From contig PQXB01000001.1 in NCBI GenBank assembly GCA_003194425.1, forward strand, positions 30,001-62,000: a stretch of DNA of 32,000 bases, given 5' to 3'. The notes beneath the pieces were generated by a model. The model had not been told where the DNA came from. It saw only the letters and a list, made by a program, of their open reading frames with translations, and made no database searches. Below are positions 5,589-30,605 of this stretch, piece by piece. Origin of the DNA: Candidatus Methanophagaceae archaeon (lineage in GTDB: Archaea; Halobacteriota; Syntropharchaeia; Alkanophagales; Methanospirareceae). The first letter of the stretch is position 1. Each line of letters starts with the position of its first letter. A program made the translations under genes and the position numbers.

Positions 5589-5921
5589 CTACGACGCCCC
5601 TCCAAAATTCCTCTTTAAAATGTGCTCCCGCTCGATCTCCCGCAGCCTGTCCTCTCTCTCGTACACCTTCGCGTAGCCGACCGTCTCCTGCCGCCCGAAT
5701 TTCGTCCGCATTCTCTCTATTACGAGGAGGTTTGGACTGCACCGTAGTTTTTTTATCAAGACCGCTCGTGTCTCTTCCCTGCTCGGCGTCGCTCCTTTCC
5801 CTTCCCCCTTCGCACTCTTCTCTCCTTTTCCCGCAGCCCCTTCTCCGTGCTTTAATCTAAAAAACACTTCCTTCCGCCTCAGCAATTGATTCTCCCGATC
5901 CTCTGTTATTTCTATCTCCAT
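5589..5921 (-). CDS. rps24e: Ribosomal protein eS24 (S24e) with a low-complexity insertion
   Basis: MEIEITEDRENQLLRRKEV..ATPSREE..GYAKVYE..EHILKRN matches S24e. An extra GEGAAGKGEKSAKGEGKG sits between KH and ATPSR. Confidence 0.9.
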   Translation of the reverse strand: MEIEITEDRENQLLRRKEVFFRLKHGEGAAGKGEKSAKGEGKGATPSREETRAVLIKKLRCSPNLLVIERMRTKFGRQETVGYAKVYEREDRLREIEREHILKRNFGGAS

Positions 5922-6022
5922 CTTTTTCTTATTCCAAAGTTTTTCTTAAGAAAAATTTTACTAAAAGAATTAGGGCAGGTGCAAGGAGAAGAAAGCGATT
6001 TTGATCGCTCTCACGACCCTCT

Positions 6023-6208
6023 TCACCGCACTTTCAACGCGTAGCGACCCGCTTTTTTTATCTCCAATTTCTTCGCAATCTCCGACCCTTTTGCGTCTAC
6101 AATTATTACATAACCGCTCCAGTCGTCGCTGAGTGAATTAGAACCGCAGTTGCAGACCGACTTCCCACTCTCGATTATTCCGTGACAGTCCCTACACGCT
6201 TTTTCCAT
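6023..6208 (-). CDS. spt4: Transcription elongation factor Spt4 (RpoE'')
   Basis: MEKACRDCHGII..CNCGS..SDDWSGYVIIVD..EIAKKL..GRYALKV is a zinc ribbon plus NGN-binding region. The ATG at 6208-6206 overlaps the rpoE' TAA (TAATG), so I prefer this start over the 93-aa track ORF. Confidence 0.85.
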   Translation of the reverse strand: MEKACRDCHGIIESGKSVCNCGSNSLSDDWSGYVIIVDAKGSEIAKKLEIKKAGRYALKVR

Positions 6209-6825
6209 TATTCCCGCTCCTTCTCCTTTTCCTTCTCCTTTTCCTTCTCCCGCTCCTTCTCCTTCTCCTTCTCCTTCTCCTTCTCCCGCTCCTCTTCGAT
6301 CCACTCGATTTTCCCCAGCCCAGGCTGTCTCATCGTCAGTCCGATTTTGCTGTCACCAGGGTCCAGTTCGTTAAGAGAAATCGCGACAATTCTCGCCCGC
6401 AACCTGTCCCCTTCGCCCAGTGTCTTACCAGAGTCTTTAGTAACGAGTTTCGCACCCTTCTCGTCGTACGAAATATATTCGTCGGTGATTTGGCTGATGT
6501 GCAGCAGCCCGTCGAGCGGTCCAATCTCAACGAAAGCCCCGAACGCCACGATTTCCACAACCGACCCTTCTACGACCTCCTGCATCTTTGGCCGAAAAAC
6601 GAGTGCGTCAAAAACGGTCTCGTAGTAAACGCCCGCGTCGCCAATCATTATCCGCCCCTCTTTTATCTCCACGACCTTCTGCACCGCGACGAAGATTCCG
6701 ATTTTCTTGTCCAACCTGCCTTCCAACTTCTCCCGCAGCACCGCCTTCACCACGACCTCTAAATCGTCGCCTAACCGCTCTGGCGGCACCCTCACCACAT
6801 CAACCGCTCGTATTTTTAGATACAT
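6208..6825 (-). CDS. rpoE1: RNA polymerase subunit E' (Rpo7, S1 domain) with a C-terminal (EK)n extension
   Basis: N-terminal Rpb7 fold followed by an S1 domain (VVEGSVVEIVAFGAFVEIGPLDGLLHISQI) and LTMRQPGLGKIEW. It then continues EEEREKEKEKEKEKEREKEKEKEKEKERE, encoded by the hexanucleotide array. Confidence 0.9.
   Translation of the reverse strand: MYLKIRAVDVVRVPPERLGDDLEVVVKAVLREKLEGRLDKKIGIFVAVQKVVEIKEGRIMIGDAGVYYETVFDALVFRPKMQEVVEGSVVEIVAFGAFVEIGPLDGLLHISQITDEYISYDEKGAKLVTKDSGKTLGEGDRLRARIVAISLNELDPGDSKIGLTMRQPGLGKIEWIEEEREKEKEKEKEKEREKEKEKEKEKERE
6211..6296 (-). repeat. Hexanucleotide microsatellite (AAGGAG)n on the sense strand; CTCCTT-type on the + strand
   Basis: Read directly: ttcccgctccttctccttttccttctccttttccttctcccgctccttctccttctccttctccttctccttctcccgctcc. 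Confidence 0.95.
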
Positions 6826-9800
6826 TTAGCCGCTTCTTTTCTCCTCGTTCTCCTTCTCGCTCTCCTCTCTCTGTTTCTCCTCCAGCCGCTTCTCAACCTC
6901 AGCAACATTCAACCGCGTCGAAATTATCGCGTCCGGGTTCAGCGAAATCGAGTCAATCCCGCACTCGACGAGGAACGCGGCGAACTCTGGGAAATCGCTC
7001 GGCGCCTGCCCGCAAATCCCAACCTTCCGCCTCGGCTCGTGCTCGTGCGCTACTTTTATGACCTGCTTCACCAACCTTTTCACTGCCTCGTTCCGCTCGT
7101 CAAACAAGCCCGCAACCAAGTCCGAATCGCGATCCAAGCCCAGCGTCAGTTGCGTCAGGTCGTTCGAGCCGATGCTGAACCCGTCAAAGACCTCCGCAAA
7201 CTCGTCCGCCAAGATCACATTCGACGGAATCTCGCACATCACATAAACCTCCAACCCGTTCTCGCCCTGCCGCAGTCCGAACTCTGCCATCGTTTTTATC
7301 ACTTTCCTGCCCTCCTCGGGCGTCCTGCAGAACGGAATCATAACTTTGACATTCGTCAGACCCATTTCTTCACGCACTTTTTTTATCGCACGGCACTCCA
7401 GCCCGAACGCGGGCTTGAACTTCTCGTCGTAGTAGCGAGACGCACCACGCCACCCCAGCATTGGGTTGTTCTCCGCGGGCTCGTAGAGGTAGCCGCCGAG
7501 CAAATTCGCGTACTCGTTCGTCTTGAAGTCAGAGAGCCGAACAATCACCTCGTTGGGATAAAATCCTGCTGCGATCTTCGCAATTCCCCGCGCCAAGTTG
7601 TCCACGAAAAACTGCACCTTGTCCTCGTAGGACGCACTCCGCTTCTCTATTTCTTTGACCACTCTCGCCAGCTTCTTGTCTCCTCCTGCTCCTCCTGCTC
7701 CTCCTGCTCCTGTTTCCGCCCGCCGCTTCAAGTCCTCGTACTCAAGCAGGGCGAGGGGGTGAATGCCGATGTAGGAATTAATGATGAACTCCTCGCGAGC
7801 CAAGCCGACGCCGTCGTTTGGGATTTGCCCCTGAATAAAAGCGTTCTCCGGCACCGCCGCGTTCATCATTATTCGTGTCCCCGGTCTCGGAAGATTGTCC
7901 AACACCAGCTTCTCTACGCGGTATTTCAGTCTCCCCTCGTAGATTCGCCCCGTCCCTTCCGAGCAGTCCACCGTAACATCTTTTACACCCTTCAACACCC
8001 TCGTCCCTCGGACTGTCCCGATAACGCAGGGAATGCCGAGTTCGCGTGAAATTATCGCAGCGTGGCAGGTCCGCCCTCCCCGGTTCGTAACAATCGCACC
8101 CGCGACTTTCATTATCGGCTCCCAGTCAGGGTCGGTCATATCCGTAACCAACACCTGCCCAGGCTTGAAGTTGAGAATGTCTCGGGCGTTCTCGATCACA
8201 TTTACTTCGCCGTACCCGATTTTGTGCCCTACAGCCTCGCCCTCGACCAACAGCCTACCCGCCTCTTTGAGCTTTTCCACCTCCTCTTCCAGCACGTAAG
8301 TCTCGAGCGAGGAGAGGTCTTTCTGCGAGTGCACGGTCTCAGGTCGCGCCTGAACAACGAAGAGTTCGCCTGTCGTCCCGTCTTTCGCCCACTCGATGTC
8401 CATCGGCGTCCCGTAGTGCTCCTCAATAATGCACGCCCACCGCGCGAGCCTCAGCACCTCGTCGTCGGTCAGCACGAATTTTTTCCGGTCTTCTTCCCCT
8501 ACCTTCTCCTGCCTCGTCCCTGTCCCTGTCTTTCTCGCCCCTGCCCCCGTTCCTGTCTTTCCTGCCTCTGCCCCCGTTCCTGTCTTTCCTGCCCCTGCCT
8601 CTTTGTAGACCATTTTCTTCCGCTTCGAACCCAGTTTCTTCTCAACAATCGGGCGGAAGCCCTGCCTCAAAGTCGGCTTAAAAACATAAAACTGGTCGGG
8701 ATTTACCGCTCCCTGCACCACGTTCTCGCCGAGCCCGTAAGCGCCGGTGATGTAAACAGCGTCGCTGAAGCCCGACTCGGTGTCAATCGAGAACATCACG
8801 CCCGAGCACGCCAAGTCCGAGCGAGCCATTTTCTGCACGCCGACTGAGAGGAAGACGCTGAGGTGGTCGAAGCCCTTGTCCACGCGGTAGGAAATCGCTC
8901 GGTTCGTGAAAAGAGAAGCGAAGCACTCCATCACTTTCTCCACCAACTCGTCCTCACCCCGCACGTTCAGGTAAGTCTCCTGCTGCCCTGCGAAACTCGC
9001 TGTGTTGTGCGTTATTATCCCCCCCATTCCAGCAGCGAAATTCTCTACCCCCGGAACAACAAAATCGTAGACGTAACCCGAATATTCAATCGGTTCTATT
9101 TCTTTTATGCCGTCCCACATTACAGCCCCTTTCAAACCCTCAAGAACCTCCTCCGCTCCGTAATTCTCTGCTACTCTTCTCAAAAGTCTCGCCCCAATTC
9201 TTCTTGAAATCCCCCCTTTATTCCACGGCGTCGCCCCTTTCTCAAATCGCCGCTCCTTTTCAACCTCGTCTTCGTAAAACGCCTTACCGCATTTCTTGCA
9301 ATAAAATCTCGTTTTACCTTTGTAACGACTCGTTCTTCCAACCACCGAACTGCACAGCGGACAGCGGCTCTCTTCCACCTCTTCCCTGGGCAACCTCTCC
9401 TCAACCGCGTCTCTGAACAAATCGGGATTTATTTCAAAGACCTCAATGAAATCAAAATGCTTCTCTTTCCCTTTGTAGTCTTCAGCCAGCGCATTCAACC
9501 TCTCGGCTTTTTTGACGCACTCGAAACCTACCAGGCGACTGAACCGCTCTGCCTCCTTGTAGGGAATTGAAATTCTGGTTAATTTCCTCCGCAAGTAAAA
9601 CTTCACGCCAAGCCGCTCTAAAAGCACTGCGACTCCTCCAATCAGGTCTTTAGAAAGGGAAGAGTAATTTATGGCGTTCTTTCCTACATCGCCGTCGCTG
9701 TCAAAACAGCCGCGCAAGAACGCACCCACCAACTCCCTCTCCAGCCCAAAGACAAAATCAGGCACCCTCTTCGTTCTGCAGTGCCGCCCTTTTCCCTGCT

Positions 9801-11010
9801 GATTTAGAGGCGCCCCTGCCACTCGGTGTAAGAACGAGACAAGCGAGGGGCAGTACACACGAACGCTTCCCTTGTTTATTTTCCTGCCCTCGTGCCACAA
9901 GCCCAAACCTTCAAGAAAGTCAGTCACTCGCTTTCGGATCTCAGGCGACGAGATTGTAATGCTGACCTCGTTCTGTTTGTAGGTGCTGCCTTCTGCGGCG
10001 TAGATTCCCAAGAAATAGAGAAACTCTTCGGTTAGGGGTAAATTGCGAGGCAACCCGTTCTGAATCTTCCAATTCCCGCTTCTTTTTAGCTTTACCTTCC
10101 CTGCCTCGTCTGTTACCGCTTCGTCGCTCTTCTCGCCACTCTTCAAATATTCCAAAACATCCAAATGCCGTCTCGCAGTCCTTGAAGCCCCTCTCCCAGT
10201 CTTAGGGTTAGGGTCAGGGTTAGGGTCAGGGTCAGGGACAGGGTCAGGGTCAGGGAGCCGCCTTACAACAGGAATTTTGTCCTCGGGCTCTAAGTCTTGA
10301 ATGGATTTTGTCCTGACTTTAAAGTCGCGGTCCAAGACGATTAGAGAATGGTCAGGGCTTACTTTTATCTCGCGTCCTGTTTTGGTGGTTATTTTGAAAA
10401 GAGTTGCCGCGTTTGCGGGATGCCTGTAAATCTCGTCCACCCTCTTCCACTTCACCTCTTTCCCTTTCTCCATCGCAGGGACTTCCATTCTGACGCCGGC
10501 GCCATTTCCGTTGTTTTTCGCTGCTTCTCTGTTGTACTCTTCGTACAGCCCTTCGACTTCCTGATAAACCGTCTTCCCTCCAAACTTGACCAACACCGGT
10601 TCGTCAGCAGCGATGCTCGGCAGATCCTCCGCGGTCGCACTGCTCCTAACAGCAACGTCAACGCCCTCGCCGTACCGCTTTTCCATTTCTCTGTAAGCGG
10701 CTCGAATCTCCTGCTCCAGCTCCGCGGGGCAGCCTGCGTTTTTTATCAGCGCCCGTATTTTGCTACCCCGCTCAGCCAAGTTCTTCATATCGTGCGTGTC
10801 TAAATCCGCAAGCGTGTCCCTGATTTTCCCCTGAATGCCCCCTACTTCGAGCACGTACTTGTAAGCCTCGGCAGTCACCGCAAAGCCCGAAGGAACATTC
10901 ACGCCCTCCTCGGTCAGGTTTCTAATCATCTCGCCAAGAGACGCGTTCTTACCGCCGACCAAGCCGACGTCGCCAGTTCCCACCTCTTCAAACCATTTTA
11001 TGAATTTCAT
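6826..11010 (-). CDS. ppsA: Phosphoenolpyruvate synthase (PpsA) interrupted by one intein
   Basis: MKFIKWFEEVGTGDVGLVGGKNASLGEM, SSATAEDLP / TASFAGQQETYLNV, GGRTCHAAIISRELGIPCV (phospho-His) and a C-terminal PEP-utilising domain. I place the start at ATG 11010; the track ORF begins 45 codons further upstream in implausible sequence. Confidence 0.9.
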   Translation of the reverse strand: MKFIKWFEEVGTGDVGLVGGKNASLGEMIRNLTEEGVNVPSGFAVTAEAYKYVLEVGGIQGKIRDTLADLDTHDMKNLAERGSKIRALIKNAGCPAELEQEIRAAYREMEKRYGEGVDVAVRSSATAEDLPSIAADEPVLVKFGGKTVYQEVEGLYEEYNREAAKNNGNGAGVRMEVPAMEKGKEVKWKRVDEIYRHPANAATLFKITTKTGREIKVSPDHSLIVLDRDFKVRTKSIQDLEPEDKIPVVRRLPDPDPVPDPDPNPDPNPKTGRGASRTARRHLDVLEYLKSGEKSDEAVTDEAGKVKLKRSGNWKIQNGLPRNLPLTEEFLYFLGIYAAEGSTYKQNEVSITISSPEIRKRVTDFLEGLGLWHEGRKINKGSVRVYCPSLVSFLHRVAGAPLNQQGKGRHCRTKRVPDFVFGLERELVGAFLRGCFDSDGDVGKNAINYSSLSKDLIGGVAVLLERLGVKFYLRRKLTRISIPYKEAERFSRLVGFECVKKAERLNALAEDYKGKEKHFDFIEVFEINPDLFRDAVEERLPREEVEESRCPLCSSVVGRTSRYKGKTRFYCKKCGKAFYEDEVEKERRFEKGATPWNKGGISRRIGARLLRRVAENYGAEEVLEGLKGAVMWDGIKEIEPIEYSGYVYDFVVPGVENFAAGMGGIITHNTASFAGQQETYLNVRGEDELVEKVMECFASLFTNRAISYRVDKGFDHLSVFLSVGVQKMARSDLACSGVMFSIDTESGFSDAVYITGAYGLGENVVQGAVNPDQFYVFKPTLRQGFRPIVEKKLGSKRKKMVYKEAGAGKTGTGAEAGKTGTGAGARKTGTGTRQEKVGEEDRKKFVLTDDEVLRLARWACIIEEHYGTPMDIEWAKDGTTGELFVVQARPETVHSQKDLSSLETYVLEEEVEKLKEAGRLLVEGEAVGHKIGYGEVNVIENARDILNFKPGQVLVTDMTDPDWEPIMKVAGAIVTNRGGRTCHAAIISRELGIPCVIGTVRGTRVLKGVKDVTVDCSEGTGRIYEGRLKYRVEKLVLDNLPRPGTRIMMNAAVPENAFIQGQIPNDGVGLAREEFIINSYIGIHPLALLEYEDLKRRAETGAGGAGGAGGDKKLARVVKEIEKRSASYEDKVQFFVDNLARGIAKIAAGFYPNEVIVRLSDFKTNEYANLLGGYLYEPAENNPMLGWRGASRYYDEKFKPAFGLECRAIKKVREEMGLTNVKVMIPFCRTPEEGRKVIKTMAEFGLRQGENGLEVYVMCEIPSNVILADEFAEVFDGFSIGSNDLTQLTLGLDRDSDLVAGLFDERNEAVKRLVKQVIKVAHEHEPRRKVGICGQAPSDFPEFAAFLVECGIDSISLNPDAIISTRLNVAEVEKRLEEKQREESEKENEEKRSG
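7681..7712 (-). repeat. 9-nt tandem repeat (GGAGCAGGA)x3 encoding GAGGAGGAGG inside ppsA
   Basis: The + strand reads tcctcctgc x3. Confidence 0.9.
8515..8601 (-). repeat. ~24-nt tandem repeat x3 encoding AGKTGTGAEAGKTGTGAGARKTGTG inside ppsA
   Basis: The + strand reads ctgcccccgttcctgtctttcctgc, repeated. Confidence 0.85.
9004..10617 (-). mobile_element. PpsA intein (538 aa) with a LAGLIDADG homing-endonuclease domain and a CxxC..CxxC zinc ribbon
   Basis: N-extein AEDLP | SIAADEPVLV (block A, Ser1), SPDHSLIVL (block B), LYFLGIYAAEGS and FLRGCFDSDGDV (two LAGLIDADG motifs), YVYDFVVPGVENFAAGMGGIITHN | TASFAGQQ (HN followed by Thr+1). Boundaries were counted codon by codon. Confidence 0.85.
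10203..10256 (-). repeat. Hexanucleotide repeat encoding PDPDPVPDPDPNPDPNP inside the PpsA intein
   Basis: The + strand reads tagggttagggtcagggttagggtcagggtcagggacagggtcagggtcaggg. Confidence 0.9.
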
Positions 11011-11181
11011 AATTCGACTCCTTCGCCTACGAGTTGTAATTTTATCCTCCAACTCTAATCTTTTAAAAGACTTAATAAACTTTATAAAAAAGTGAAGACG
11101 CATAAAAGTGAAACACGAGAGAGGGGCAAAATAGAGGAGGAGCATAGTAGAGGAGGGGCAAAATAGAGAAATAAGAGACGA

Positions 11182-11709
11182 ATGATTGAAGAAGAAATCG
11201 GGAACGAGCTACGAAGAGCGGGCGGCGGCGCAACCCTTGCCACCGCGGAGTCCTGCACCGGCGGGCTGGTCTCGCACAGACTAACGAACGCCCCTGGCTG
11301 CTCGGACTACTACAAAGGCGGTGTCGTCGCTTACGCCAACGAGGCGAAGGAGAAGGTTTTGGGTGTCGCGGGGGAGACGCTGCGGGAGAAGGGGGCGGTG
11401 AGCGCGGAGTGCGCGGTTGAAATGGCGCGGGGCGTGCGCGGGCTGTTTGAGAGCGACTTCGGCGTTGCAACCACCGGAATCGCAGGTCCCAGCGGGGGAA
11501 CGCCCGAGAAACCTGTAGGTTTAGTTTTTATAGCAGTGGCGACAAGAGACTTCGCAGACTATGAAAAACACTTCTTCCACGGGGACAGGGAAACGAACAA
11601 GCGCGAGGCGGCGGAGGCTGCGCTTGGAATGCTGAAGAAAAAAATCTTGAAAATAAAAACAGGAACAAAAGGGCTCGTAGCTCAGAAAGGTAGAGCAGCG
11701 GGCTTTTAA
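11182..11709 (+). CDS. CinA C-terminal domain / nicotinamide-nucleotide amidohydrolase (PncC-like)
   Basis: LATAESCTGGLVSHRLTNAPGCSDYYKGGVVAYANEAK..GAVSAECAVEMARGVR..GVATTGIAGPSGGTPEKPVGLVFIAVA. The last ~13 codons lie inside the tRNA-Lys gene. Confidence 0.8.
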   Translation: MIEEEIGNELRRAGGGATLATAESCTGGLVSHRLTNAPGCSDYYKGGVVAYANEAKEKVLGVAGETLREKGAVSAECAVEMARGVRGLFESDFGVATTGIAGPSGGTPEKPVGLVFIAVATRDFADYEKHFFHGDRETNKREAAEAALGMLKKKILKIKTGTKGLVAQKGRAAGF

Positions 11710-11744
11710 CCCGTCGGTCGCGGGTTCAAATCCCGTCGAGCCCG
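11671..11744 (+). tRNA. tRNA-Lys (anticodon UUU)
   Basis: Manual cloverleaf: acceptor GGGCTCG/CGAGCCC, D stem GCTC/GAGC, anticodon stem GCGGG/CCCGT with loop CT-TTT-AA, 5-nt variable loop, T stem GCGGG/CCCGT with loop TTCAAAT, discriminator G. CCA is not encoded. Confidence 0.93.
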
Positions 11745-11754
11745 TTCCTTTCCA

Positions 11755-12084
11755 ATGAAAAAAATGAAAAAAACGAAGGTAGCCGAGTCAAAAATACTTG
11801 AGCACGCGTTAGTGCCAAAGCACGAAATAATGAGCGAGGCAGAGGTAAAAGAACTTTTAGACAGCTACAAAATAAGGAAAGCGCAGTTGCCCAAGATTAA
11901 ATCTTCTGACCCAGTCTGCAAGGAGATAAAAATAAAAATTGTGGGCAAGAAAGGGGGCAAAAACAAGACCGCAGAGCAGACAAAGGAGAAGGAAAGAACG
12001 GCAGAGGTCGGCGATATCGTGAAAATAACGCGGCAGAGCAGAACCGCGGGAAAAGTCTTTTCTTACCGTCTCGTCGTGGAGTAA
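11755..12084 (+). CDS. rpoH: RNA polymerase subunit H (Rpo5) with an internal basic insertion
   Basis: HALVPKHEIMSEAEVKELLDSYKIRKAQLPKIKSSDPVCKEI ... GDIVKITRQSRTAGKVFSYRLVV. About 24 extra residues (KIKIVGKKGGKNKTAEQTKEKERTAEV) precede GDIVKI. Located directly upstream of rpoB. Confidence 0.88.
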   Translation: MKKMKKTKVAESKILEHALVPKHEIMSEAEVKELLDSYKIRKAQLPKIKSSDPVCKEIKIKIVGKKGGKNKTAEQTKEKERTAEVGDIVKITRQSRTAGKVFSYRLVVE

Positions 12085-12085
12085 G

Positions 12086-12145
12086 GCAGGGTGGAGAGAA
12101 GGTGGAAAGCAGGGTGGAGAGAAGGTGGAAAGCAGGGTGGAGAAA
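12086..12145 (+). repeat. Intergenic 23-nt tandem repeat (gcagggtggagagaaggtggaaa) x~2.6 between rpoH and rpoB
   Basis: Perfect copies at 12086-12108 and 12109-12131, and a partial third copy. Related degenerate purine-rich sequence continues to 12225. Confidence 0.9.
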
Positions 12146-12225
12146 AAAAGTAAGGTGGAACAGGTGGGTAGAGCAGGAGCAGCAGAGCAAGTAGGTAGAG
12201 TAAAAGTAAAAGGGGAGAGAGCAGA

Positions 12226-20379: not shown

Positions 20380-20403
20380 GAGAAGAAAAGGGAAAGGGAG
20401 TAG
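20285..20403 (+). repeat. 24-nt polypurine tandem repeat (~4.5 units) at the rpoA1 3' end, running through the stop codon
   Basis: gagaaagagaggaaaagggaaagg x2, then gagaaggagaagaaaagggaaagg, then gagtaggagaagaaaagggaaagg, then gagtag. 20286-20376 is an uninterrupted 91-nt purine run. Confidence 0.92.
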
Positions 20404-20417
20404 GGAGAGGGCGTAAG

Positions 20418-23247: not shown

Positions 23248-23261
23248 ACTTAGGTGAAGTG

Positions 23262-23343
23262 ATGGCGAGAAGAGAGGAAGAGAAGGGAAGGAGAGAAGAA
23301 AGGGGGAGAAAAGAGAGAGCAGAGATGGAGTGAAGAAGGGAAA
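23262..23343 (+). repeat. Purine-rich spacer between rps12 and rps7, with a 53-nt uninterrupted purine run at 23267-23319
   Basis: Read directly. Contains a 23-codon ATG-initiated ORF in a different frame from rps7. Confidence 0.85.
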
Positions 23344-24253: not shown

Positions 24254-24304
24254 TTGCGTAGCTTCTGACCGCGTGGGGCTTCGCTTTGTCTTGCCCCACA
24301 CCAT

Positions 24305-24349
24305 TTAGGGGCTGTTGCCCCTAATCCCTTTTTATTTTTTTGTTTTTTC
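24305..24349 (+). terminator. Hairpin ttaggggc-tgtt-gcccctaa followed by T-runs
   Basis: Perfect 8-bp stem with a 4-nt loop, then tccctttttatttttttgttttttc. Preceded by a second hairpin, gtggggc(13 nt)gccccac, at 24273-24299. Sits between convergent genes. Confidence 0.55.
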
Positions 24350-24950
24350 ACTCAAGCATTTTTAACCCAGAATAAAACCGCTTTAACTTGGCTTTCCCGC
24401 GTGCGAGCGTGAAATTCGCTTTTGAGACGATAAAATCTAGGTGCGGGTCGCTGCAGAACAGCACGCCCCCTTCAGCCAGCGGAACGTTAATTCGCTCGGT
24501 GCTCACGATTTCTACTACCACTTTTCCGTTGTCGTTTGAGTTTGAAATCGTTTTTATGCCGCTGTATTTGAACCCTGACTCATTCGCTACCGCTAACAAC
24601 GCCTTTGCCTTCCCCAAAGTTCTGCACGCCACGTGCAGAATCGGGGACTGCGACAAGAGCCAGACTTCGCCTTTCTCTGCTGTCCCTACCGCTGAACGCT
24701 TCAGCACCGCCAACACTTCTTCCTTCGTTACTGCGCGGTGCCACTTCCCGAGAAACACTGCCTCCCGCTTCGCCCCGACTTCAGGGACGCGGAGCAGAAC
24801 GATTCTGCCCGAGCAACTGCTCGTCGTGAAGAAGTCCTTGAGGCTGTTTAGTCGCCCGATTATTTCTACTACTTCTTCGTCTACTCGCCCCTTCTTCCCC
24901 TCCTCCGCGCGCAACCGCGCAAGCGCCCGCTCCTTCCGCTCTTCAAACAT
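24348..24950 (-). CDS. taw3: tRNA wybutosine/wyosine biosynthesis methyltransferase TYW3/Taw3
   Basis: DFFTTSSCSGRIVLL, FLGKWHRAVT, LLSQSPILHVACRTL, GFKYSGIK. I prefer ATG 24950 over the upstream TTG 24965 used by the track. Confidence 0.85.
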   Translation of the reverse strand: MFEERKERALARLRAEEGKKGRVDEEVVEIIGRLNSLKDFFTTSSCSGRIVLLRVPEVGAKREAVFLGKWHRAVTKEEVLAVLKRSAVGTAEKGEVWLLSQSPILHVACRTLGKAKALLAVANESGFKYSGIKTISNSNDNGKVVVEIVSTERINVPLAEGGVLFCSDPHLDFIVSKANFTLARGKAKLKRFYSGLKMLE

Positions 24951-25043
24951 CAACACCAAGAACAAGCCGAAAAATTTAGAAAATTATTTATAGAACCTGT
25001 TTTTTGTTTTTAAAGATAAACTAACACACCACACCAGCGAAAA

Positions 25044-25313
25044 ATGATAAAAATATTCTTGGCGGTCGGGCTGCTAATCGCACTCACGATATTACTTGCG
25101 TTGTGTCGAACGGTGCTCGGACCCGGCGTCTTCAACCGCGTGGCGGCGATAAATGTAATCGGGACAAAAACGATCGTCCTGCTGGTGATTATTGGGTATA
25201 TTTTCGAGCGGCCGCTCTTCTTTGACATTTCGCTTCTTTACGCACTCCTGAATTTTATCGGGACTTTGGCGTTCGCAAAATATTTAGAAAGGGGAGAAGT
25301 ATGGTCGGGGTAA
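25044..25313 (+). CDS. mnhF: Mrp/Mnh-type cation:proton antiporter subunit F (MbhB-like)
   Basis: 89 aa with 3 TM helices. VLGPGVFNRVAAINVIGTK and LLYALLNFIGTLAFAKYLE match MnhF/PhaF. Confidence 0.85.
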   Translation: MIKIFLAVGLLIALTILLALCRTVLGPGVFNRVAAINVIGTKTIVLLVIIGYIFERPLFFDISLLYALLNFIGTLAFAKYLERGEVWSG

Positions 25314-25330
25314 ATGTCGGGCTAATCGCA

Positions 25331-25377
25331 GCGGTAGGCGGTAGGGTAGGCGGTAGGAAAGGTAGGAAGAAGGTTAG
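25331..25377 (+). repeat. Intergenic GGTAGG(C)-type short repeat between mnhF and mnhG
   Basis: gcggtaggcggtagggtaggcggtaggaaaggtaggaagaaggttag. The ~7-nt unit is not divisible by 3. Confidence 0.85.
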
Positions 25378-25400
25378 AACAGGGCAGGGAGGGGACGGAG

Positions 25401-25754
25401 ATGATTGGGATAATTGAAATAATCGTAGTAATTCTCTTGGCAGCGGGCGTTTTTTTTATGCTCACGGGCGCGATCGGGCTGCTGCGGTTCCCTGATTTTT
25501 ACACGCGGCTGCACGCCACTGGGAAGTGCGACACGCTTGGAGAAGTCCTTATAATTGCAGGGCTGCTGCTGCACCACTTCTTCGTTTACAGCTCGGTCCC
25601 GGGAGCGGAACTCTCGGTGAAACTCGTGCCTGTGAAGCTCCTGTTTTTGATTGTGTTCATTTTTCTCGCCAACCCGACGGCGACGCACGCGATAATGAAA
25701 GCGGCTTACAACACGGGCGAGAAGCCCTGGAAGGTGGGAGAGGAGCGGAAATGA
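25401..25754 (+). CDS. mnhG: Mrp/Mnh antiporter subunit G (MbhC-like)
   Basis: LTGAIGLLRFPDFYTRLHATGKCDTLG and ANPTATHAIMKAAY match MnhG/PhaG. Confidence 0.85.
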   Translation: MIGIIEIIVVILLAAGVFFMLTGAIGLLRFPDFYTRLHATGKCDTLGEVLIIAGLLLHHFFVYSSVPGAELSVKLVPVKLLFLIVFIFLANPTATHAIMKAAYNTGEKPWKVGEERK

Positions 25755-26437
25755 AGAAGGGGGAGAAGGTAGAGAAAGGGAAGAAGGGGGAGAAGGTAGA
25801 GAAGGGGAAGAAGGGGGAGAAGAGTAGAGGGGTGAGGGGTAAAGAAGGGAAGAGAGGAGGGGAGGGCGGAGGAGGGGAGAGAGAAGGGGTGGAGAGGAAA
25901 GGAGGGAAGGGGTTTGGGATATTTGTAACCTTTTGCGTGTTGTTTCTGTTCTGGCTGCTTCTCTCAGGGATTTTTGATGCTTTTCATGTCGGAGCGGGTG
26001 TAATTTGCAGTGTGATTGTCGCGTTGATTTCGCACGACCTCTTGGTGCGGGAGCGGGGGGAGAAGGTGCTCCTGAAGTCGTTTAGGTTCGTAATTTATCT
26101 CGGCTGGGAGTTGTGGCAGATTGCGTTGGCGAATTTTGATGTCGCTTACCGCGTTCTGCACCCGAGGATGCCGATTGACCCGCTGATAATTGAGTTTGAC
26201 ACTCCGCTGCGAAGCGACTTCGCGCTCGTTACGCTCGCCAATTCCATAACGCTAACTCCTGGAACGATAACCATTTCGGTGGAGCCGGAGAGGGGCAGGT
26301 TTTTGGTGCACGCGATTTCGAAGAAGCCTGCTGACGCGCTCACGGTGGAGAAGACGATGCAAAATAAAGTGGCGGATGTTTTTATGGTGGGAGGACAAGA
26401 AAAAGGAGGAGAATGGAAAAATGATATGGCAGCTTGA
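25751..26437 (+). CDS. mnhE: Mrp/Mnh antiporter subunit E (MbhA-like) with a repeat-rich N-terminal extension
   Basis: ATG 25751 overlaps the mnhG stop (ATGA). The conserved part is FWLLLSGIFD..., ANFDVAYRVLHP and VTLANSITLTPGTITISVE...FLVHAI. The first ~55 aa are K/G/E repeats. Confidence 0.8.
   Translation: MKKGEKVEKGKKGEKVEKGKKGEKSRGVRGKEGKRGGEGGGGEREGVERKGGKGFGIFVTFCVLFLFWLLLSGIFDAFHVGAGVICSVIVALISHDLLVRERGEKVLLKSFRFVIYLGWELWQIALANFDVAYRVLHPRMPIDPLIIEFDTPLRSDFALVTLANSITLTPGTITISVEPERGRFLVHAISKKPADALTVEKTMQNKVADVFMVGGQEKGGEWKNDMAA
25754..25834 (+). repeat. 27-nt tandem repeat x3 encoding (KKGEKVEKG)n at the mnhE 5' end
   Basis: aagaagggggagaaggtagagaaaggg, repeated. Purine-rich sequence continues to ~25912. 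Confidence 0.9.
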
Positions 26438-26663
26438 CATCGCACTGTTGTTCTTGATTGTAGTGGTTGCCGTTGCTGCGATAACTTTGAGGGACCTCTT
26501 GAGTGCGATTATGCTCTTGAGTGCTTACAGTTTTCTGATGGCGGTGGTCTGGGTCGAGATGCACTCGGTGGATGTGGCGTTTACCGAGGCTGCGGTCGGC
26601 GCTGGTGCAACTACCGCTTTTTTAATCGCGGCGTTGTCCAGGACGGTGAGGTGGGAAAAGTGA
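26421..26663 (+). CDS. DUF4040 / MbhD-like small membrane subunit (MrpA C-terminal or MnhB N-terminal related)
   Basis: 80 aa with 3 TM helices. MHSVDVAFTEAAVGAGATT matches the DUF4040 aPDVAlTEAaVG motif. I prefer ATG 26421 over the track start 26376. Confidence 0.7.
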   Translation: MIWQLDIALLFLIVVVAVAAITLRDLLSAIMLLSAYSFLMAVVWVEMHSVDVAFTEAAVGAGATTAFLIAALSRTVRWEK

Positions 26664-26682
26664 GAGAGGAGAAGGAGAAGAA

Positions 26683-27303
26683 ATGAAACAACTCTCGGCA
26701 GTGGCACTATTGTTTGTAATCTTTTTGGGTAGTCTTTTCGTTTATGTAGCAGAGGACATTCCTGCTTTTGGCGACCCGAATTCCGCTCCTAACAGGTATG
26801 TCAAGTTGTTCGAAATTGATGCTGCGGGGTTAGAGGGCGATTTAGAGCAGGGCGTTCTCCCTGCGAGTTTAGTGGATAATTTAGAGGATGAGATTGAAGA
26901 ACGCGGTTTTCCTCTTCCTTCTGGAGTTGCGAGGGTTTCGGGAAAGGGAGAGGGAGAAGGAGAGGGAGAAGGAGAGGGAGAGGGAGAGGAAGCGGAAGGC
27001 GCCTGGGAGGCGGTTATTGTCCCAGCGGAGACGGAGCAGCATTTCTACCCGAAGGAGCAGAAGTACTACTTTATCGAGAAGAGGGGGGAGAAGTTGTGGG
27101 TTTACCGCTACGCACCTGTCAAAAGGTATATGGAGGAGGGGCCTAATGAGACAAATGTACCGAATATGGTAACTTACATTCTCGCAGACTACAGGGGCTA
27201 CGACACGCTTGGGGAGACGACTGTCATTTTCACCGCCGGCGTTGCGGTTATGCTGTTATTGAGGAGGCGGGAGAAGAGACCGCGGGAGAAGCGACCGGAA
27301 TGA
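26683..27303 (+). CDS. MbhE-like membrane subunit (MnhB-related) with a large extra-membrane insertion
   Basis: N-terminal TM helix then FGDP, and C-terminal NMVTYILADYRGYDTLGETTVIFTAGVAVMLLL (the DYRGfDTLGE motif). About 100 aa in between have no counterpart that I recall. Confidence 0.7.
   Translation: MKQLSAVALLFVIFLGSLFVYVAEDIPAFGDPNSAPNRYVKLFEIDAAGLEGDLEQGVLPASLVDNLEDEIEERGFPLPSGVARVSGKGEGEGEGEGEGEGEEAEGAWEAVIVPAETEQHFYPKEQKYYFIEKRGEKLWVYRYAPVKRYMEEGPNETNVPNMVTYILADYRGYDTLGETTVIFTAGVAVMLLLRRREKRPREKRPE
26941..26996 (+). repeat. GGAGAR microsatellite encoding GKGEGEGEGEGEGEGEE
   Basis: Read directly from the sequence. Confidence 0.92.
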
Positions 27304-27908
27304 ATAAAAAAGAAAGTAGCAAAGGGGAAGAGAGTAGCAAAAGGGAAGCGAAGGGGGGGGATGTAATTATTGAAGTGGTTACGAGGCTGATGGTTCCTTT
27401 TATTCAGTTGTTCGCGTTGTATGTGATAATTCACGGAGCAGGCGGACCAGGAGGCGGATTTCAGGGTGGTGTCATCTTCGGCTCCTCTTTTATCCTGTAT
27501 GCCATCGCGTTTGGCATCGTCAAAGCGGGCAACAGGTTCTCGGAGTCTGCAAATACCGTCTTCTTCAGCACCGGCGTCTACATCTACGCAGGCGTGGGGC
27601 TGCTCTGCGTAATTCTCAGTTACGGCGCTGCCCAGTTCCTAAATTACGGCTTCATTCCGCTGACGCACCATTTTGAAGAGAACAGGGCTCTCGGAATGGA
27701 CCTCGTGGAAATCGGAATTGGGATAACTGTGATGGCTGTAATTACTTCAATTTTCTTTAACCTCGCCTGGAAGCGAGAAAACGAAGGAGGGAAAAAAGCA
27801 GGAGAAGGAGGAGGAGAAGGAGGAGGAGAAGGGAGAAGACAAGCGGAAGGAGGGGAAGGAAGAGAAAGAAGGGAAGGAAGAGAAAGAAGAGAGGAGGTGA
27901 GGGGATAA
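27300..27908 (+). CDS. mnhB: Mrp/Mnh antiporter subunit B (MbhF-like) with repeat-rich termini
   Basis: VTRLMVPFIQLFALYVIIHGAGGPGGGFQGGVIFGSSFIL matches the MnhB core. ATGA overlap with the upstream gene. N-terminal (ESSKGE)(ESSKRE) and a ~40-aa G/E/R C-terminal tail. Confidence 0.85.
   Translation: MNKKESSKGEESSKREAKGGDVIIEVVTRLMVPFIQLFALYVIIHGAGGPGGGFQGGVIFGSSFILYAIAFGIVKAGNRFSESANTVFFSTGVYIYAGVGLLCVILSYGAAQFLNYGFIPLTHHFEENRALGMDLVEIGIGITVMAVITSIFFNLAWKRENEGGKKAGEGGGEGGGEGRRQAEGGEGRERREGRERREEVRG
27781..27905 (+). repeat. Polypurine low-complexity repeats encoding the MnhB C-terminal tail (GGKKAGEGGGEGGGEGRRQAEGGEGRERREGRERREE)
   Basis: ggagaaggaggagga x2, then gggaaggaagagaaagaa x2. Confidence 0.88.
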
Positions 27909-27910
27909 AA

Positions 27911-28291
27911 ATGATGGAGTGGTTAGTTGAGGAGGTGTTTGCGAAATACAATTACTGGATTTCCATTGTGCTTATGCTCATCGGTTTCTATGCGATGATT
28001 GCGAAGGAGAACCTGGTAAAAAAAATTATCGGACTAAACATTTTTCAGACCGCGATATTCCTGTTCTACATCTCGCTTGGCGATATTGTTGGCGGGACCG
28101 AGCCGATTGTGGTCGAAGGGTTTGAGAGCATTTATGTGAACCCGCTGCCGCATGTGCTTATTCTGACCGCGATTGTTGTCGGGGTTGCTACGACCGCGGT
28201 CGCTCTTTCTCTGGTAATTTTGATGTACGAGAAGTACGGGACGATTGAAGAGCCGGAGATAATTGAGAAGGAGCGAGAAGGAGAGGCGTAG
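27911..28291 (+). CDS. mnhC: Mrp/Mnh antiporter subunit C (NuoK/MbhG-like)
   Basis: 3 TM helices. GLNIFQTAIFLFYISLG and NPLPHVLILTAIVVGVATTAVALSLVILMYEKYGT match the MnhC/NuoK family. Confidence 0.88.
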   Translation: MMEWLVEEVFAKYNYWISIVLMLIGFYAMIAKENLVKKIIGLNIFQTAIFLFYISLGDIVGGTEPIVVEGFESIYVNPLPHVLILTAIVVGVATTAVALSLVILMYEKYGTIEEPEIIEKEREGEA

Positions 28292-28343
28292 GGAGAGTTG
28301 AGGAGAGGAAAGAAATGAAGGGCGCTAAAATGTTGAAGGAGAA

Positions 28344-29120
28344 ATGCTTGAAGCACAGACAGTTAGCGTGGCGTTCTGCTTCTGCTGCCTGATTTACGCC
28401 TCTCTCTCGGACCTAAAGACGAGAACCGTAGGGAACTGGCTTTGGGTGTTTATGGCTGCGGTAGGTGTCCCGCTCGCTACTTGCGGCATTCTCACGCACG
28501 CCGCCCACACCGCCGTCCAACTAATCTTCTCCGTCCTCTCTACCTCGGTGTTAGCCTTTTTCTGCTTTAGACTGGGTCTCTTTGGTGGTGCGGACGCGAA
28601 GGCACTAATTTGCATTTCGTTGCTTATTCCAAGTCATTTCTCGAGAGGGGTAGGAGCAGTAGGAGCAATTTCCTGTCCGTTTGCAGTTACGACGCTTTTT
28701 AACGCTGCTCTTCTCTCTACCGCTGCTCCGCTCTCGGTCTTCTTTTATAATTTATTTCAAGAGAGAAAAATAGAAAATGTTAAATTAATGTTCGTTGGTT
28801 ACAAGGTCCCTGTCGGCGAGCTTGCGTGTAAAAAGTATGTAAGATTAGTTCATTCGTATGAGGAAGAGGTGGTGGGCGAGGGAGAAGGAGAAGACGAGGG
28901 GGAAGGAGAAGGAGAGAAGGTAGTAAAAAGATTTTCGTTTGGTGGTGTAGAGATTGACGAGGAGACGGTGAAGAGGTTAAAAGAGTACGCTGCGGAGGGT
29001 AAAATTGAAGACGAGGTCTGGGTGACGCCAGAATTACCGTTTATGCTTTTCATCACCGCTGGCTTTTTTATCTCGGTTGTGTGCGGTAATTTAATAATGC
29101 TTGTATTTTCTTTACCATAA
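28344..29120 (+). CDS. Archaeal type IV prepilin/preflagellin peptidase (A24 family; FlaK/PibD/EppA-like)
   Basis: Catalytic Asp motifs YASLSDLKTR and LFGGADAKAL, multiple TM helices, and a soluble insertion before the last helix as in FlaK. Contains a VGEGEGEDEGEGEGE repeat. Confidence 0.83.
   Translation: MLEAQTVSVAFCFCCLIYASLSDLKTRTVGNWLWVFMAAVGVPLATCGILTHAAHTAVQLIFSVLSTSVLAFFCFRLGLFGGADAKALICISLLIPSHFSRGVGAVGAISCPFAVTTLFNAALLSTAAPLSVFFYNLFQERKIENVKLMFVGYKVPVGELACKKYVRLVHSYEEEVVGEGEGEDEGEGEGEKVVKRFSFGGVEIDEETVKRLKEYAAEGKIEDEVWVTPELPFMLFITAGFFISVVCGNLIMLVFSLP
28875..28918 (+). repeat. GGAGAA-type microsatellite encoding GEGEGEDEGEGEGE in the peptidase soluble domain
   Basis: Read directly from the sequence. 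Confidence 0.88.
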
Positions 29121-29179
29121 AAAATAAAAAAGGGGAGGTTTTACACAAAGTTTTACACAAAGGAGAGTTTTACACCTCC

Positions 29180-29581
29180 CTAAACCAACCTCTTCCCCGC
29201 GTTCGGTCCGACGCTGACTGAAAAAACCTCTTCCACTTTTATCAGCCCTACACTCTTCGCCTCTAGTTTCAACTTCTTCTTCACCGCTGCCTTCTTCTCC
29301 TCAAAGACCGCTCCCGCTGTCTGGAATCCCAGAAAAGAGCCTTTTACTTGGTAGCCTTTCGAGCCCTTCCAAGCAGCAACTGCGACCTTCTTCGTCGCCT
29401 CCAAATTCGCCCTCGTCTTCCCCAAGAACACATCTCCGAACGCGAGCGTCTCCTCGTCCAGCACCGAAAATGTCAGCACTGGCACCACATTCAATCTTCC
29501 CTCGGCGTCCGCGGTCGCGACTGCTTTTTGTGCACCCCAGTCCCCAAACATCTCCACAACCTCCTTCGGCATCTTTACCAT
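29180..29581 (-). CDS. Pyridoxamine 5'-phosphate oxidase-like FMN-binding split-barrel protein
   Basis: 133 aa. VATADAEGRLNVVPV...FGDVFLGKTRANLEATKKVAVAAWKGSKGYQVKG resembles the PNPOx-like family pattern. Confidence 0.65.
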   Translation of the reverse strand: MVKMPKEVVEMFGDWGAQKAVATADAEGRLNVVPVLTFSVLDEETLAFGDVFLGKTRANLEATKKVAVAAWKGSKGYQVKGSFLGFQTAGAVFEEKKAAVKKKLKLEAKSVGLIKVEEVFSVSVGPNAGKRLV

Positions 29582-29675
29582 TTTTTTTTCTCCCTCCGTC
29601 TGCTTTGACTACGCTTTGACTACTACTTAACTACTTTTAAATGCGACCACAACTATAAAAACCTACACAACTAAA

Positions 29676-30605
29676 ATGTCAAGAATAAAAAAAATTTTGA
29701 GCCTTGCCCTTGCTGGAGTGGCGGTGGCGGTGGTGCTTTTGGCTGCACTCCACGCTTACTACTTCTTGCCGCCCGAGTCCGTTGAGTTGCTGCTGCCGTC
29801 TTCCGCTGGAGGCGGGGACAAAATCGCGATAATTGAGATTAACGGCGAGATTAAAGAAAGCAGTTTAGAGCAGGTTCAAAAACTTTTAGACCGAGCCGAG
29901 ACGGAAGACGAGATAAAAGCGGTCGTGCTCAGAATAAACAGCGGTGGCGGCGGTGCAGTGGCGTCGTGGAAAATGCACAACGCAGTGAAGCGGCTGAAGT
30001 CAAAGTCAAAGTCAAAGGCAGAGGCAGAGGCAAAGGCAAAGGCAAAGGCAAAGGCAAAGGCAAAGGCAAAGACAGAGAAGCCTGTTGTCGCGTTTATTTC
30101 GGATTTCGGGGCTTCGGGTGCGTATTTGGTCGCAGTTGCAGCGGACAAGATAATTGCAACGCCTGTCTCGACGGTAGGAAGCATCGGAGTGTTAATGGTT
30201 TTCCCTTTTGATGTCCCCGCAAACGCGTCCGAGAAAGCCAAGAACCTCTCCTCTCTCTCTACTGGCGAGTTCAAAGACATTTTTTCAGACTACCGGCTAA
30301 ACGAGCGGGAGCGGGAATATTTAAATGAGCGGTTGCAGAGTCTCTTAAAAGTGTTCTTGGAGTGCGTCGCCGAGGGCAGGGGAATGAGCGTTGAGGAGGT
30401 GTCAAAGGTGGCACACGGTGGCTGGTTTACTGGGGCGGAAGGGGTGGAGTTGGGGCTCGTAGACGAGACAGGGGACTTGCAGGACGCTGTGGAGGAGGCG
30501 GCAGAACTCGCAAATCTCTCTTTGGAGGACACTAAAGTCGTAACTTTAGGAGTCGTGGGCTCGCGAGTGAAAGAGAGAGACTACAAGGGAAAAGGAGAAT
30601 TTTAA
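29676..30605 (+). CDS. sppA: Signal peptide peptidase SppA (S49 family, 36K type)
   Basis: N-terminal TM anchor, IAIIEINGEI, AVVLRINSGGG, GASGAYLVAVAADKIIATPVSTVGSIGV (Ser nucleophile region), and EREYLNERLQ...F helical region. Confidence 0.88.
   Translation: MSRIKKILSLALAGVAVAVVLLAALHAYYFLPPESVELLLPSSAGGGDKIAIIEINGEIKESSLEQVQKLLDRAETEDEIKAVVLRINSGGGGAVASWKMHNAVKRLKSKSKSKAEAEAKAKAKAKAKAKAKTEKPVVAFISDFGASGAYLVAVAADKIIATPVSTVGSIGVLMVFPFDVPANASEKAKNLSSLSTGEFKDIFSDYRLNEREREYLNERLQSLLKVFLECVAEGRGMSVEEVSKVAHGGWFTGAEGVELGLVDETGDLQDAVEEAAELANLSLEDTKVVTLGVVGSRVKERDYKGKGEF
29997..30072 (+). repeat. Hexanucleotide arrays (aagtca)x3, (gaggca)x2, (aaggca)x7 encoding KSKSKSKAEAEAKAKAKAKAKAKAK in sppA
   Basis: Read directly from the sequence. 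Confidence 0.95.

Follow-up and report, generated by a model that had tools for sequence, protein, structure and literature searches.

How do genes as conserved as those of the archaeal RNA polymerase and ribosome come to carry in-frame tandem repeats in such number? The question is raised by a stretch of 32,000 nucleotides (hereafter the window; contig PQXB01000001.1 of assembly GCA_003194425.1, positions 30,001 to 62,000 of the forward strand) from a Candidatus Methanophagaceae archaeon. The organism is a methane-oxidising anaerobic methanotrophic (ANME) archaeon of the ANME-1a group, of the G37 type and assigned by GTDB to the species "ANME1a sp003194425". Pfam and open reading frame (ORF) analysis identify the window as an archaeal information-processing locus. 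The genes for S24e, Spt4, RpoE' and an intein-bearing phosphoenolpyruvate (PEP) synthase, PpsA, lie on the minus strand, and those for CinA, RpoH, an unsplit RpoB, an intein-bearing RpoA', RpoA'', L30e, NusA, S12 and S7 on the plus strand; further along come a TRAM gene, TYW3, an Mrp/Mbh-like cluster, a peptidase A24 gene, a PNPOx-like gene, SppA, TrkA and a DNA methyltransferase gene. The repeat tracts of this locus are real, lineage-specific, enriched and polymorphic, and they bear the signature of a selective filter. We consider it probable that they are actively evolving variable-number tandem repeats together with their decayed remnants, produced by ongoing duplication and slippage, filtered by selection and made frequent by a lineage-specific change.

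Arrays were defined with Tandem Repeats Finder (TRF) at a score of at least 50, overlapping calls being merged. The window holds 23 such arrays (1567 bp in total), 18 in coding sequence and five in intergenic DNA, and several consist of copies matching at 100%. A preliminary description of the sequence, made by eye, had listed most of them: all of its tracts were located and found in frame by ORF and TRF analysis, and its gene assignments agree with Pfam, which backs the identities of S24e, Spt4, RpoE', CinA, RpoH, RpoA'', L30e, MnhE, MbhE, MnhB, peptidase A24 and peptidase S49/SppA. Its S24e tract stands as a 16-aa insertion, with no DNA repeat that TRF detects there in the window. Its list omitted a 23-aa insert in RpoH, an array at the C-terminus of PpsA and the five intergenic arrays.

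The density of the tracts, which had been called far from ordinary, is confirmed by several comparisons. After codon shuffling within genes (100 runs), 5.3 arrays remained on average, of which five are the unshuffled intergenic ones, so that about 0.3 coding arrays would be expected against the 18 present. TRF repeat coverage amounts to 49 bp/kb in the window and to 59 and 66 bp/kb in two other strains, against a median of about 2 bp/kb (0–0.13 arrays per kb) around rpoB in 80 other species of archaea under the same settings. Perfect short tandem repeats (STRs; units of at most 9 nt in at least three copies) reach 8.3 bp/kb in the window against a median of 1.09, and a survey of 117,861 genomes gave 1.02 bp/kb for archaea, the lowest of the domains, and 9.6 bp/kb for eukaryotes (PMC12699852). 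We preferred TRF coverage to the perfect-STR metric because many arrays are imperfect, with units of 12–36 nt; with a threshold of at least two copies, that metric does not discriminate. The repeats extend past the right end of the window, where AlaRS carries (RERERETE)n of 31–43 aa along with smaller repeats (L089 5330–8296, L090 6759–9773) and ranges from 930 to 1004 aa across strains. The TrpD-like glycosyltransferase adjoining AlaRS carries an (EEGG)n tract.

That the tracts are insertions between conserved blocks had been proposed with Methanocaldococcus and Pyrococcus orthologues as the reference, and alignments with orthologues and structures bear this out: the tracts are lacking in 23–28 Methanophagales/Syntropharchaeia orthologues and in solved structures. 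The orthologue sets for RpoB, RpoH, RpoA', RpoA'' and L30e comprised 18–28 sequences, while the tracts of MnhE, MbhE, MnhB, peptidase A24 and SppA were judged by Pfam domain limits and strain comparison alone. In an alignment of RpoB with 24 homologues, from 98% down to 52% identity, six inserts occur in the window and in the cluster 98% identical to it, and nowhere else (aa 53–86, 151–157, 524–543, 587–589, 696–710 and 1057–1060), the one at 524–543 being the (GAE)7 tract. The nearest other Methanophagales RpoB, 78% identical and 1113–1125 aa long against 1200 aa, has no residues at any of the six sites. Compared with ANME-1 orthologues, RpoH has 23 extra aa, RpoA'' the 23 aa of (GTKA)n and L30e 23 + 8 + 5 aa, and no inserts were found in NusA, S12 and S7. 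The (REKE)n tail of RpoA' is found in this lineage only, and its A/G/E/S loop lies where relatives have no more than a short variable segment.

Solved structures locate several inserts to the residue. Residues 2–24 and 41–105 of S24e match residues 3–25 and 26–90 of 1XN9, which places the 16 aa between adjacent residues; the RpoH insert falls between residues 54 and 55 of the solved archaeal Rpo5, and those of L30e lie between conserved segments of the solved archaeal eL30, the (GAGARA)n insert between residues of about 31 and 36. The PpsA tracts are extra sequence relative to the PEP synthase 2OLS. At the site of (AEAGKTGTG)3, Neisseria PpsA has a single AEAGKSVTN (within KAEAGKSVTNV), and the PpsA repeat unit is therefore a duplicated pre-existing local sequence. 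The suggestion that the inserts are tolerated as loops is compatible with an AlphaFold model of RpoB built from a 26-sequence alignment (mean predicted local distance difference test, pLDDT, 59.9; N-terminal half better modelled), in which the inserts at 53–86, 526–543 and 695–711 are predicted coil with pLDDT below 50 between well-modelled elements, the first of them between confident strands at 42–52 and 87–101. At the site equivalent to aa 151–157, ANME-1c RpoB proteins carry independent low-complexity inserts: 84 aa, E/S/D-rich and with (EESDSE)n, in Ca. Methanoxibalbensis ujae (L024 10175–10241, P0047), and 29 aa, A/S/E-rich, in a second protein (P0046). This site is a recurrent permissive loop.

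Thirteen further assemblies of the species, drawn from ENA, NCBI, JGI and Logan, from Pescadero and other samples and from different assemblers, allowed the tracts to be followed among strains. An exact-protein look-up with NusA recovered the locus in independent assemblies, including the NCBI metagenome-assembled genome (MAG) GCA_026133975.1, which is 11719B_bin4_ANME1, an ANME-1a member of Methanophagaceae 'gen. nov. 3' classified as ANME1a sp003194425 (Laso-Perez et al. 2023, Supplementary Table 2, PMC9894754); the same species includes ANME-1 G37 (GCA_003194425.1) (PMC9894754). The same look-up returned no match for the membrane protein at 4862–5374 and only one 1.9-kb contig for CinA and RpoH, and the left half of the window was reached in the strains via the RpoB cluster P0001.

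In all 13 assemblies the tracts are present, in frame and at the same sites. At substitution sites the assemblies share 99.2–100% identity with the window, yet length, measured as the distance between unique anchors, differs at almost every tract; ten control segments of similar size show no length variation. Seven pairwise alignments contain 46 distinct coding indels, 37 of which fall inside TRF arrays that make up 6.7% of bases. All but three of these coding indels (43/46) are multiples of 3, against intergenic indels of which 10 of 18 are not. The differences between strains correspond to whole units: RpoB differs by 36 nt, or four units of 9 nt, RpoA'' by 12 or 24 nt and the RpoH–RpoB spacer by 23 nt. 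The ratio of transitions to transversions among strains, 2.76, is unremarkable. A recent or ongoing process had been proposed earlier, and copy numbers that vary among populations about 99.3% identical at substitution sites establish that the repeat process is ongoing.

Two Logan contigs, each from a single run, are 100% identical to the window (L087, window 10204–12115; L093, window 3823–6282) and break off precisely within tracts, namely (PD)n, the 23-nt repeat of the RpoH–RpoB spacer and (EK)n of RpoE'. Short-read assemblies are fragmented at such sites. In a JGI assembly (L092 8013–8613), the annotation gives MbhE as a fragment of 57 aa and a lengthened MbhD, which suggests either a frameshifting copy change at (GE)n or an assembly error.

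Comparison of coding and intergenic DNA separates what generates the arrays from what retains them. Units had been described as always divisible by three. This holds for the coding arrays, 18 of 18 (6, 9, 12, 15, 18, 21, 24, 27 and 36 nt), and breaks down in the intergenic ones, with periods of 16, 23, 13, 12 and 12 nt and strain length differences of -23, +33/34, -13, -12, -3 and -1 nt. The process is therefore not codon-aware, and the rule of three is a selection filter. Arrays are also 4.6 times denser in noncoding than in coding DNA (2.7 against 0.60 per kb, noncoding DNA making up only 1.8 kb of the window). When 26 tracts were compared all against all by blastn, the only common sequence was (GGAGAR)n, which reads Gly-Glu in MbhE, peptidase A24 and the RpoA' intein and Glu-Lys in RpoE'; since the reading frame changes from gene to gene, what recurs is a DNA motif and not a peptide. 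At the end of RpoA', the TAG stop lies in a 24-nt unit and recurs in the next one (window 20377–20411), and in strain L002 (~7990–8030) the first TAG reads AAG, which makes the tail one unit longer. The C-terminal tail of RpoA' thus appears to derive from a repeat spanning the gene end.

These observations fit a simple scheme of which slippage or microhomology-mediated duplication would be the molecular event. A local stretch of 6–36 nt would first be duplicated in tandem, through replication slippage or through microhomology-mediated tandem duplication, which a preprint (10.64898/2026.02.28.708716) reports to be the main way in which new tandem duplications arise in bacteria, archaea and fungi. 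Slippage would then expand and contract the array by whole units. Being blind to coding status and frame, the process would leave all filtering to selection, which would purge frameshifting, hydrophobic or structurally disruptive arrays; the survivors in genes would have units divisible by three, sit in loops or at the ends of proteins and code for peptides that are hydrophilic and flexible (G/E/K/A/R/T/S). Point mutation would finally erode arrays into non-repetitive low-complexity inserts, RpoB aa 53–86 being a probable example. The purine richness of the tracts would be copied from a sense strand that is itself 60% purine, with the filter acting at the protein level in addition.

Purine richness is also the ground for a different reading. 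The tracts had been described as purine-rich on the sense strand whatever the gene orientation, and a transcription-oriented process had been proposed on this basis. The description fits 17 of the 18 coding arrays, with a sense purine fraction of 0.74–1.00, and fails for the PpsA-intein (PD/PN)n, at 0.29. On the alternative reading, homopurine mirror repeats such as (GGAGAA)n would form H-DNA, R-loops or G-rich non-template structures, causing replication stalls and strand-oriented duplication, with a shift towards G at third positions as the trigger. The orientation itself speaks for it, as the 17 coding and four of the five noncoding arrays are purine-rich on what is the sense strand for the flanking operon, in either orientation; some ten arrays have a purine content of 90% or more, (GGAGAR)n occurs in six genes, and the GC content at third codon positions (GC3), the sole compositional difference found, is 0.68 here against 0.42–0.55 in repeat-free relatives.

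We nevertheless judge such a structure-driven origin unlikely. Seventeen of the 18 coding arrays exceed the sense background of 0.60, their composition mirroring the nucleotide bias of the genome. Over RpoB, RpoA'', NusA, S12 and S7 the sense purine fraction is 0.598 without and 0.608 with the tracts, and the same five genes give 0.59–0.62 in fourteen repeat-free ANME-1 relatives. Outside repeats, polypurine/polypyrimidine runs of 15 nt or more number 0.71 per kb here against 0.09–0.84 in ANME-1 relatives; L013, L009, L010 and L012, for example, offer equal substrate and have almost no arrays. Composition alone does not explain the tracts, since repeat-free relatives have the same purine load and an equal or higher density of polypurine tracts; purine loading or polypurine abundance as the cause was rejected on these grounds, polypurine tracts having been among the candidates of the preliminary description. 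Arrays that are not homopurine exist as well: (GAE)n at 0.78, (GTKA)n at 0.74, (PD)n at 0.29 and the intergenic array at 29138 at 0.52. The orientation, lastly, is also explained by duplication of a 60%-purine sense strand and selection for hydrophilic peptides, and a transcription-oriented process is not required. Elsewhere in ANME-1, Ca. Methanoxibalbensis ujae (ANME-1c, L024) presents a milder coding version of the phenomenon, at 20 bp/kb, and ANME-1-LC (L021) a different pattern, with arrays nearly all noncoding and units not divisible by three.

Equal substrate in repeat-free relatives points to a lineage-specific change in the rate or the tolerance of duplication. The most likely cause of the high rate would be a lineage-specific trans-acting change affecting replication or repair fidelity (flap processing or the repair of mismatches and loops, for example) or else the efficiency of selection against insertions. 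Going further, the species may be a natural 'tandem-duplication mutator' archaeon, in which the alteration or loss of a fidelity or repair factor raised duplication and slippage genome-wide, a proposal that we advance tentatively as possible; candidates would include, for example, flap endonuclease or RNase HII processing, PolD/PolB proofreading and NucS/EndoMS-type loop repair. In yeast, rad27 (FEN1) mutants show a tandem-duplication mutator phenotype. There, as in microhomology-mediated duplication, short local tandem duplications are able to grow into multi-copy arrays, as may be the case here; the yeast phenotype stems from a known FEN1 gene defect, whereas the likeness to ANME-1a is a mechanistic analogy.

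Several points weigh against the reading of the tracts as slippage-driven, selection-filtered repeats promoted in trans. Short-read metagenome assemblies can collapse repeats and their contigs break at the tracts, so some allele lengths may be wrong. The analysis covers about 42 kb of a 1.4-Mb genome, within which region 1–5500 of the window is nearly repeat-free, and the RpoB model is poor overall. As GC3 differs from that of the relatives, a cis effect of G-richness is possible. Purine richness on the sense strand is also seen in four noncoding arrays inside operons, where no filter at the protein level operates; with n=4, they leave room for a possible contribution to purine orientation at the nucleic-acid level.

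Could the tracts instead be adaptive? Selection might favour charged or flexible loops and tails in the protein, for solubility, for adaptation to heat or pressure or as surfaces for interaction, or it might act on the RNA through extra purine loading of mRNA. The tracts do persist in essential proteins in 13 of 13 assemblies, and their peptides are uniformly hydrophilic. They also raise the sense purine content, if only slightly, over the five genes given above. Purine loading has reportedly been proposed by Xue and Forsdyke as the driver of low-complexity segments in Plasmodium. We hold an adaptive origin to be improbable all the same. The chemistry of the tracts is inconsistent: (GE)n is acidic, (AK)n basic, (EK)n/(RE)n neutral and (GAG)n/(GTKA)n uncharged. 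One DNA motif is used in several reading frames, copy number is hypervariable where it might have been fixed near an optimum, arrays are denser in noncoding DNA, and relatives of like lifestyle and purine load lack the tracts. Thermophily is not supported as a cause either: the Thermococcus and Methanocaldococcus loci are repeat-poor, and as G37 is cultured at 37 °C (PMC5947290), thermal adaptation is no obvious driver. The genome-based predicted optimal growth temperature of the species is 68–72 °C (PMC9894754, Table S2), and the E/K/R-rich inserts may push such composition-based estimates up.

In-frame insertion at permissive sites of conserved genes would also be expected of a dispersed mobile element family. 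Rickettsia palindromic elements are inserted in this way in conserved protein-coding genes, at structurally permissive sites. They form one dispersed palindromic mobile family, however, while the ANME-1a tracts are unrelated local tandem duplications. The absence of any complex consensus among the 26 tracts, beyond the simple (GGAGAR)n, argues against a dispersed family, and so do the diverse and tandem units and the local source of the PpsA unit. The converse view, that the segments are ancestral and were lost in all relatives, would have them disappear precisely and in parallel from over 20 lineages, among them outgroups and the organisms of the solved structures; we regard both forms of this explanation as very improbable. 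An artefact of assembly or polishing, or chimeric binning, which the metagenomic origin of the data and the contigs of two sequencing runs ending within tracts might suggest, is effectively refuted by 13 further assemblies from five sources and different assemblers with the tracts in frame at the same sites, by reading frames that are all open and by length differences of whole units.

Among known systems, the closest parallels come from outside the Archaea. Plasmodium falciparum has the highest STR density among the 117,861 genomes surveyed (PMC12699852), and its low-complexity insertions (see also PMC7534687) are in-frame, lineage-specific and located between conserved blocks of essential proteins; as in ANME-1a, their composition tracks the genome bias, they are length-polymorphic and tolerated in loops, and their origin is ascribed to slippage or unequal recombination. 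Plasmodium is nonetheless an AT-rich eukaryote with Asn/Lys tracts, whereas ANME-1a is a prokaryote of 52% GC with GA-rich tracts encoding G/E/K/A/R. Ehrlichia ruminantium (Collins et al. 2005, PMC545511, cited in PMC10710844) likewise has a small prokaryotic genome with many tandem repeats of strain-variable copy number. There, expansion and contraction are described as targeted at noncoding regions (PMC10710844), unlike the ANME-1a arrays, which lie mostly in conserved transcription, translation and metabolism genes, and Ehrlichia is an obligate intracellular bacterium whereas ANME-1a is a free-living syntrophic archaeon. Bacterial contingency loci (see PMC3315296) resemble the tracts in having slippage-prone repeats in or near genes and copy numbers that vary among strains, and differ in acting as frame or promoter-spacing switches of surface or restriction genes. 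With coding units that are all divisible by three (18/18), all window reading frames intact and housekeeping genes as hosts, the ANME-1a arrays show no switching, and contingency loci or phase variation are ruled out. The individual tracts are listed in Table 1.

Table 1. Repeat tracts and inserts of the window, with positions in the window and the evidence for each (TRF, Tandem Repeats Finder)
Feature	Position	Strand	Evidence
S24e insertion, aa 25–40, GEGAAGKGEKSAKGEG	5802–5849	-	1XN9 alignment; L088 24 nt longer
RpoE' C-terminal (EK)n tail, sense (AAGGAG)n	6212–6293	-	TRF period 18/6, score 122, purine 0.96
PpsA C-terminal tail array, E/K/R/S-rich	6840–6879	-	TRF period 21, score 52; beyond end of 2OLS alignment
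PpsA (GAG)3 insert	7680–7711	-	TRF period 9, 100% matches; ~17 aa extra vs 2OLS; 24-nt length difference in L088
PpsA (AEAGKTGTG)3 insert	8507–8599	-	TRF period 27, score 130
PpsA-intein (PD/PN)n	10204–10255	-	TRF period 6, 8.7 copies; 24-nt difference in L088
Intergenic array, divergent PpsA/CinA	11121–11168	.	TRF period 16, score 75
RpoH 23-aa K/E/T/G-rich insert, aa 60–82	11932–12000	+	Absent in 26 orthologues; L088 21 nt longer
Intergenic array, RpoH/RpoB	12086–12143	.	Period 23, 2.5 perfect copies, TRF score 116; L088 exactly one unit shorter
RpoB insert 1, aa 53–86, acidic E/K/G, decayed repeat	12382–12483	+	Absent in 23 orthologues; weak TRF row 12373–12417
RpoB (GAE)7, 9-nt unit, 7.1 perfect copies	13792–13855	+	TRF; three other strains 36 nt (4 units) shorter
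RpoB insert 3, aa 696–710, K/A/G/E	14311–14355	+	Absent in orthologues; other strains 24 nt longer
RpoA'-intein (GGE/GEE)n, 100% purine	17287–17357	+	TRF period 24/9; 4 length alleles in 4 assemblies
RpoA' A/G/E/S loop insert	19084–19238	+	TRF period 12/36; alleles -60 and -78 nt
RpoA' (REKE)n tail, array crossing the stop into the pre-RpoA'' spacer	20284–20411	+	Absent in relatives
RpoA'' (GTKA)n insert, aa 241–263	21136–21206	+	12-nt unit, 4.8 perfect copies; absent in 23 orthologues; 3 alleles in 5 assemblies
L30e (GAGARA)n insert, aa 48–70; second insert 22124–22147	21998–22068	+	Absent in 20 orthologues; 4 alleles in 6 assemblies
Intergenic array S12/S7, (GAAGAGAGGGAGA)n	23256–23341	.	Period 13, TRF 6.8 copies; other strains +33–34 nt
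Intergenic array MnhF/MnhG	25333–25357	.	Period 12; 3 alleles in 6 assemblies
MnhE N-terminal (KKGEKVEKG)n low-complexity tail	25753–25906	+	TRF period 27, score 138; Pfam MNHE starts downstream; 6 alleles in 6 assemblies
MbhE (GE)8, 100% purine	26940–26989	+	TRF period 6; 5 alleles in 6 assemblies
MbhE C-terminal and MnhB N-terminal arrays	27267–27348	+	TRF periods 15 and 18; length invariant in 7 assemblies
MnhB C-terminal G/E/R tail	27796–27897	+	TRF period 27/18; 6 alleles in 7 assemblies
Peptidase A24 (GE)n insert	28877–28911	+	TRF period 18; Pfam Peptidase_A24 and Arc_PepC_II; some strains +18 nt
Intergenic array, convergent genes, not purine-rich	29138–29162	.	Period 12; alleles -13, -12, -1 nt
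SppA (KS)3(AE)2(AK)7	29997–30071	+	TRF period 6, 12.5 copies; 6 alleles in 7 assemblies, all steps multiples of 6

On other aspects, the locus has several particularities. Both inteins contain polymorphic repeats. That of PpsA, inside 6826–11010, is of the LAGLIDADG type; that of RpoA' is 535 aa long (window 17209–18813, RpoA' aa 448–982) and was not found in any of the 28 other ANME-1/Syntropharchaeia rpoA' genes compared. The Mrp/Mbh-like cluster (25044–28291) encodes small subunits only (MnhF, MnhG, MnhE, MbhD, MbhE, MnhB and MnhC), large antiporter-like or hydrogenase subunits are not adjacent, and the peptidase A24 gene follows directly. The N6/N4 DNA methyltransferase gene at 3888–4817 has 39% GC against 52% overall and zero repeats; it may be a recent acquisition, exposed to the repeat process only briefly. 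Strain L001 (12592–13728) has about 1.1 kb of extra sequence between TYW3 and MnhF, with a 236-aa ORF and two small ORFs, missing from the window (site ~24886–24898) and from L002. The DUF2341 gene of the window (2240–2935) encodes 231 aa; in L088 (1–722) it belongs to a larger DUF2341/Laminin_G protein, which exceeds 526 aa, and the two regions align poorly, with numerous small indels.

The G37 ANME-1a genome comprises 1.40 Mb in five scaffolds (Krukenberg et al. 2018, PMC5947290). Its GC content of 52%, also that of the window, is unexpectedly above the 46% of the thermophilic G60 ANME-1a (PMC5947290).

Tandem repeats are less dense in archaea than in any other domain and are depleted there relative to chance (PMC12699852). 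Against that background, a repeat load in the rpo/ribosomal cluster about 25 times the normal one sets this archaeon clearly apart and is very unusual for a prokaryote; hypervariable in-frame arrays lie inside RNA polymerase B, A', A'', H and E', S24e, L30e, AlaRS and PEP synthase. We found no description of comparable repeats in ANME-1 or any other archaeon within the literature searched. Genome behaviour of this kind is known, but its occurrence in this domain is unexpected and the genes affected are unusually constrained. In practice, the tracts can serve as strain-typing markers for ANME-1 populations; they also break short-read assemblies, inflate protein lengths and may bias composition-based predictors. 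Because G37 is an enrichment culture with genome and transcriptome data, the cause and the consequences of the repeats are directly testable. Were the species indeed a tandem-duplication mutator, even its RNA polymerase and ribosomal proteins would have been remodelled by the process, and a link to the shift to 52% GC would be possible. It would then be the first archaeal counterpart of the repeat-ridden genomes of Plasmodium and Ehrlichia, and would offer a handle on how archaea ordinarily keep repeat instability in check.

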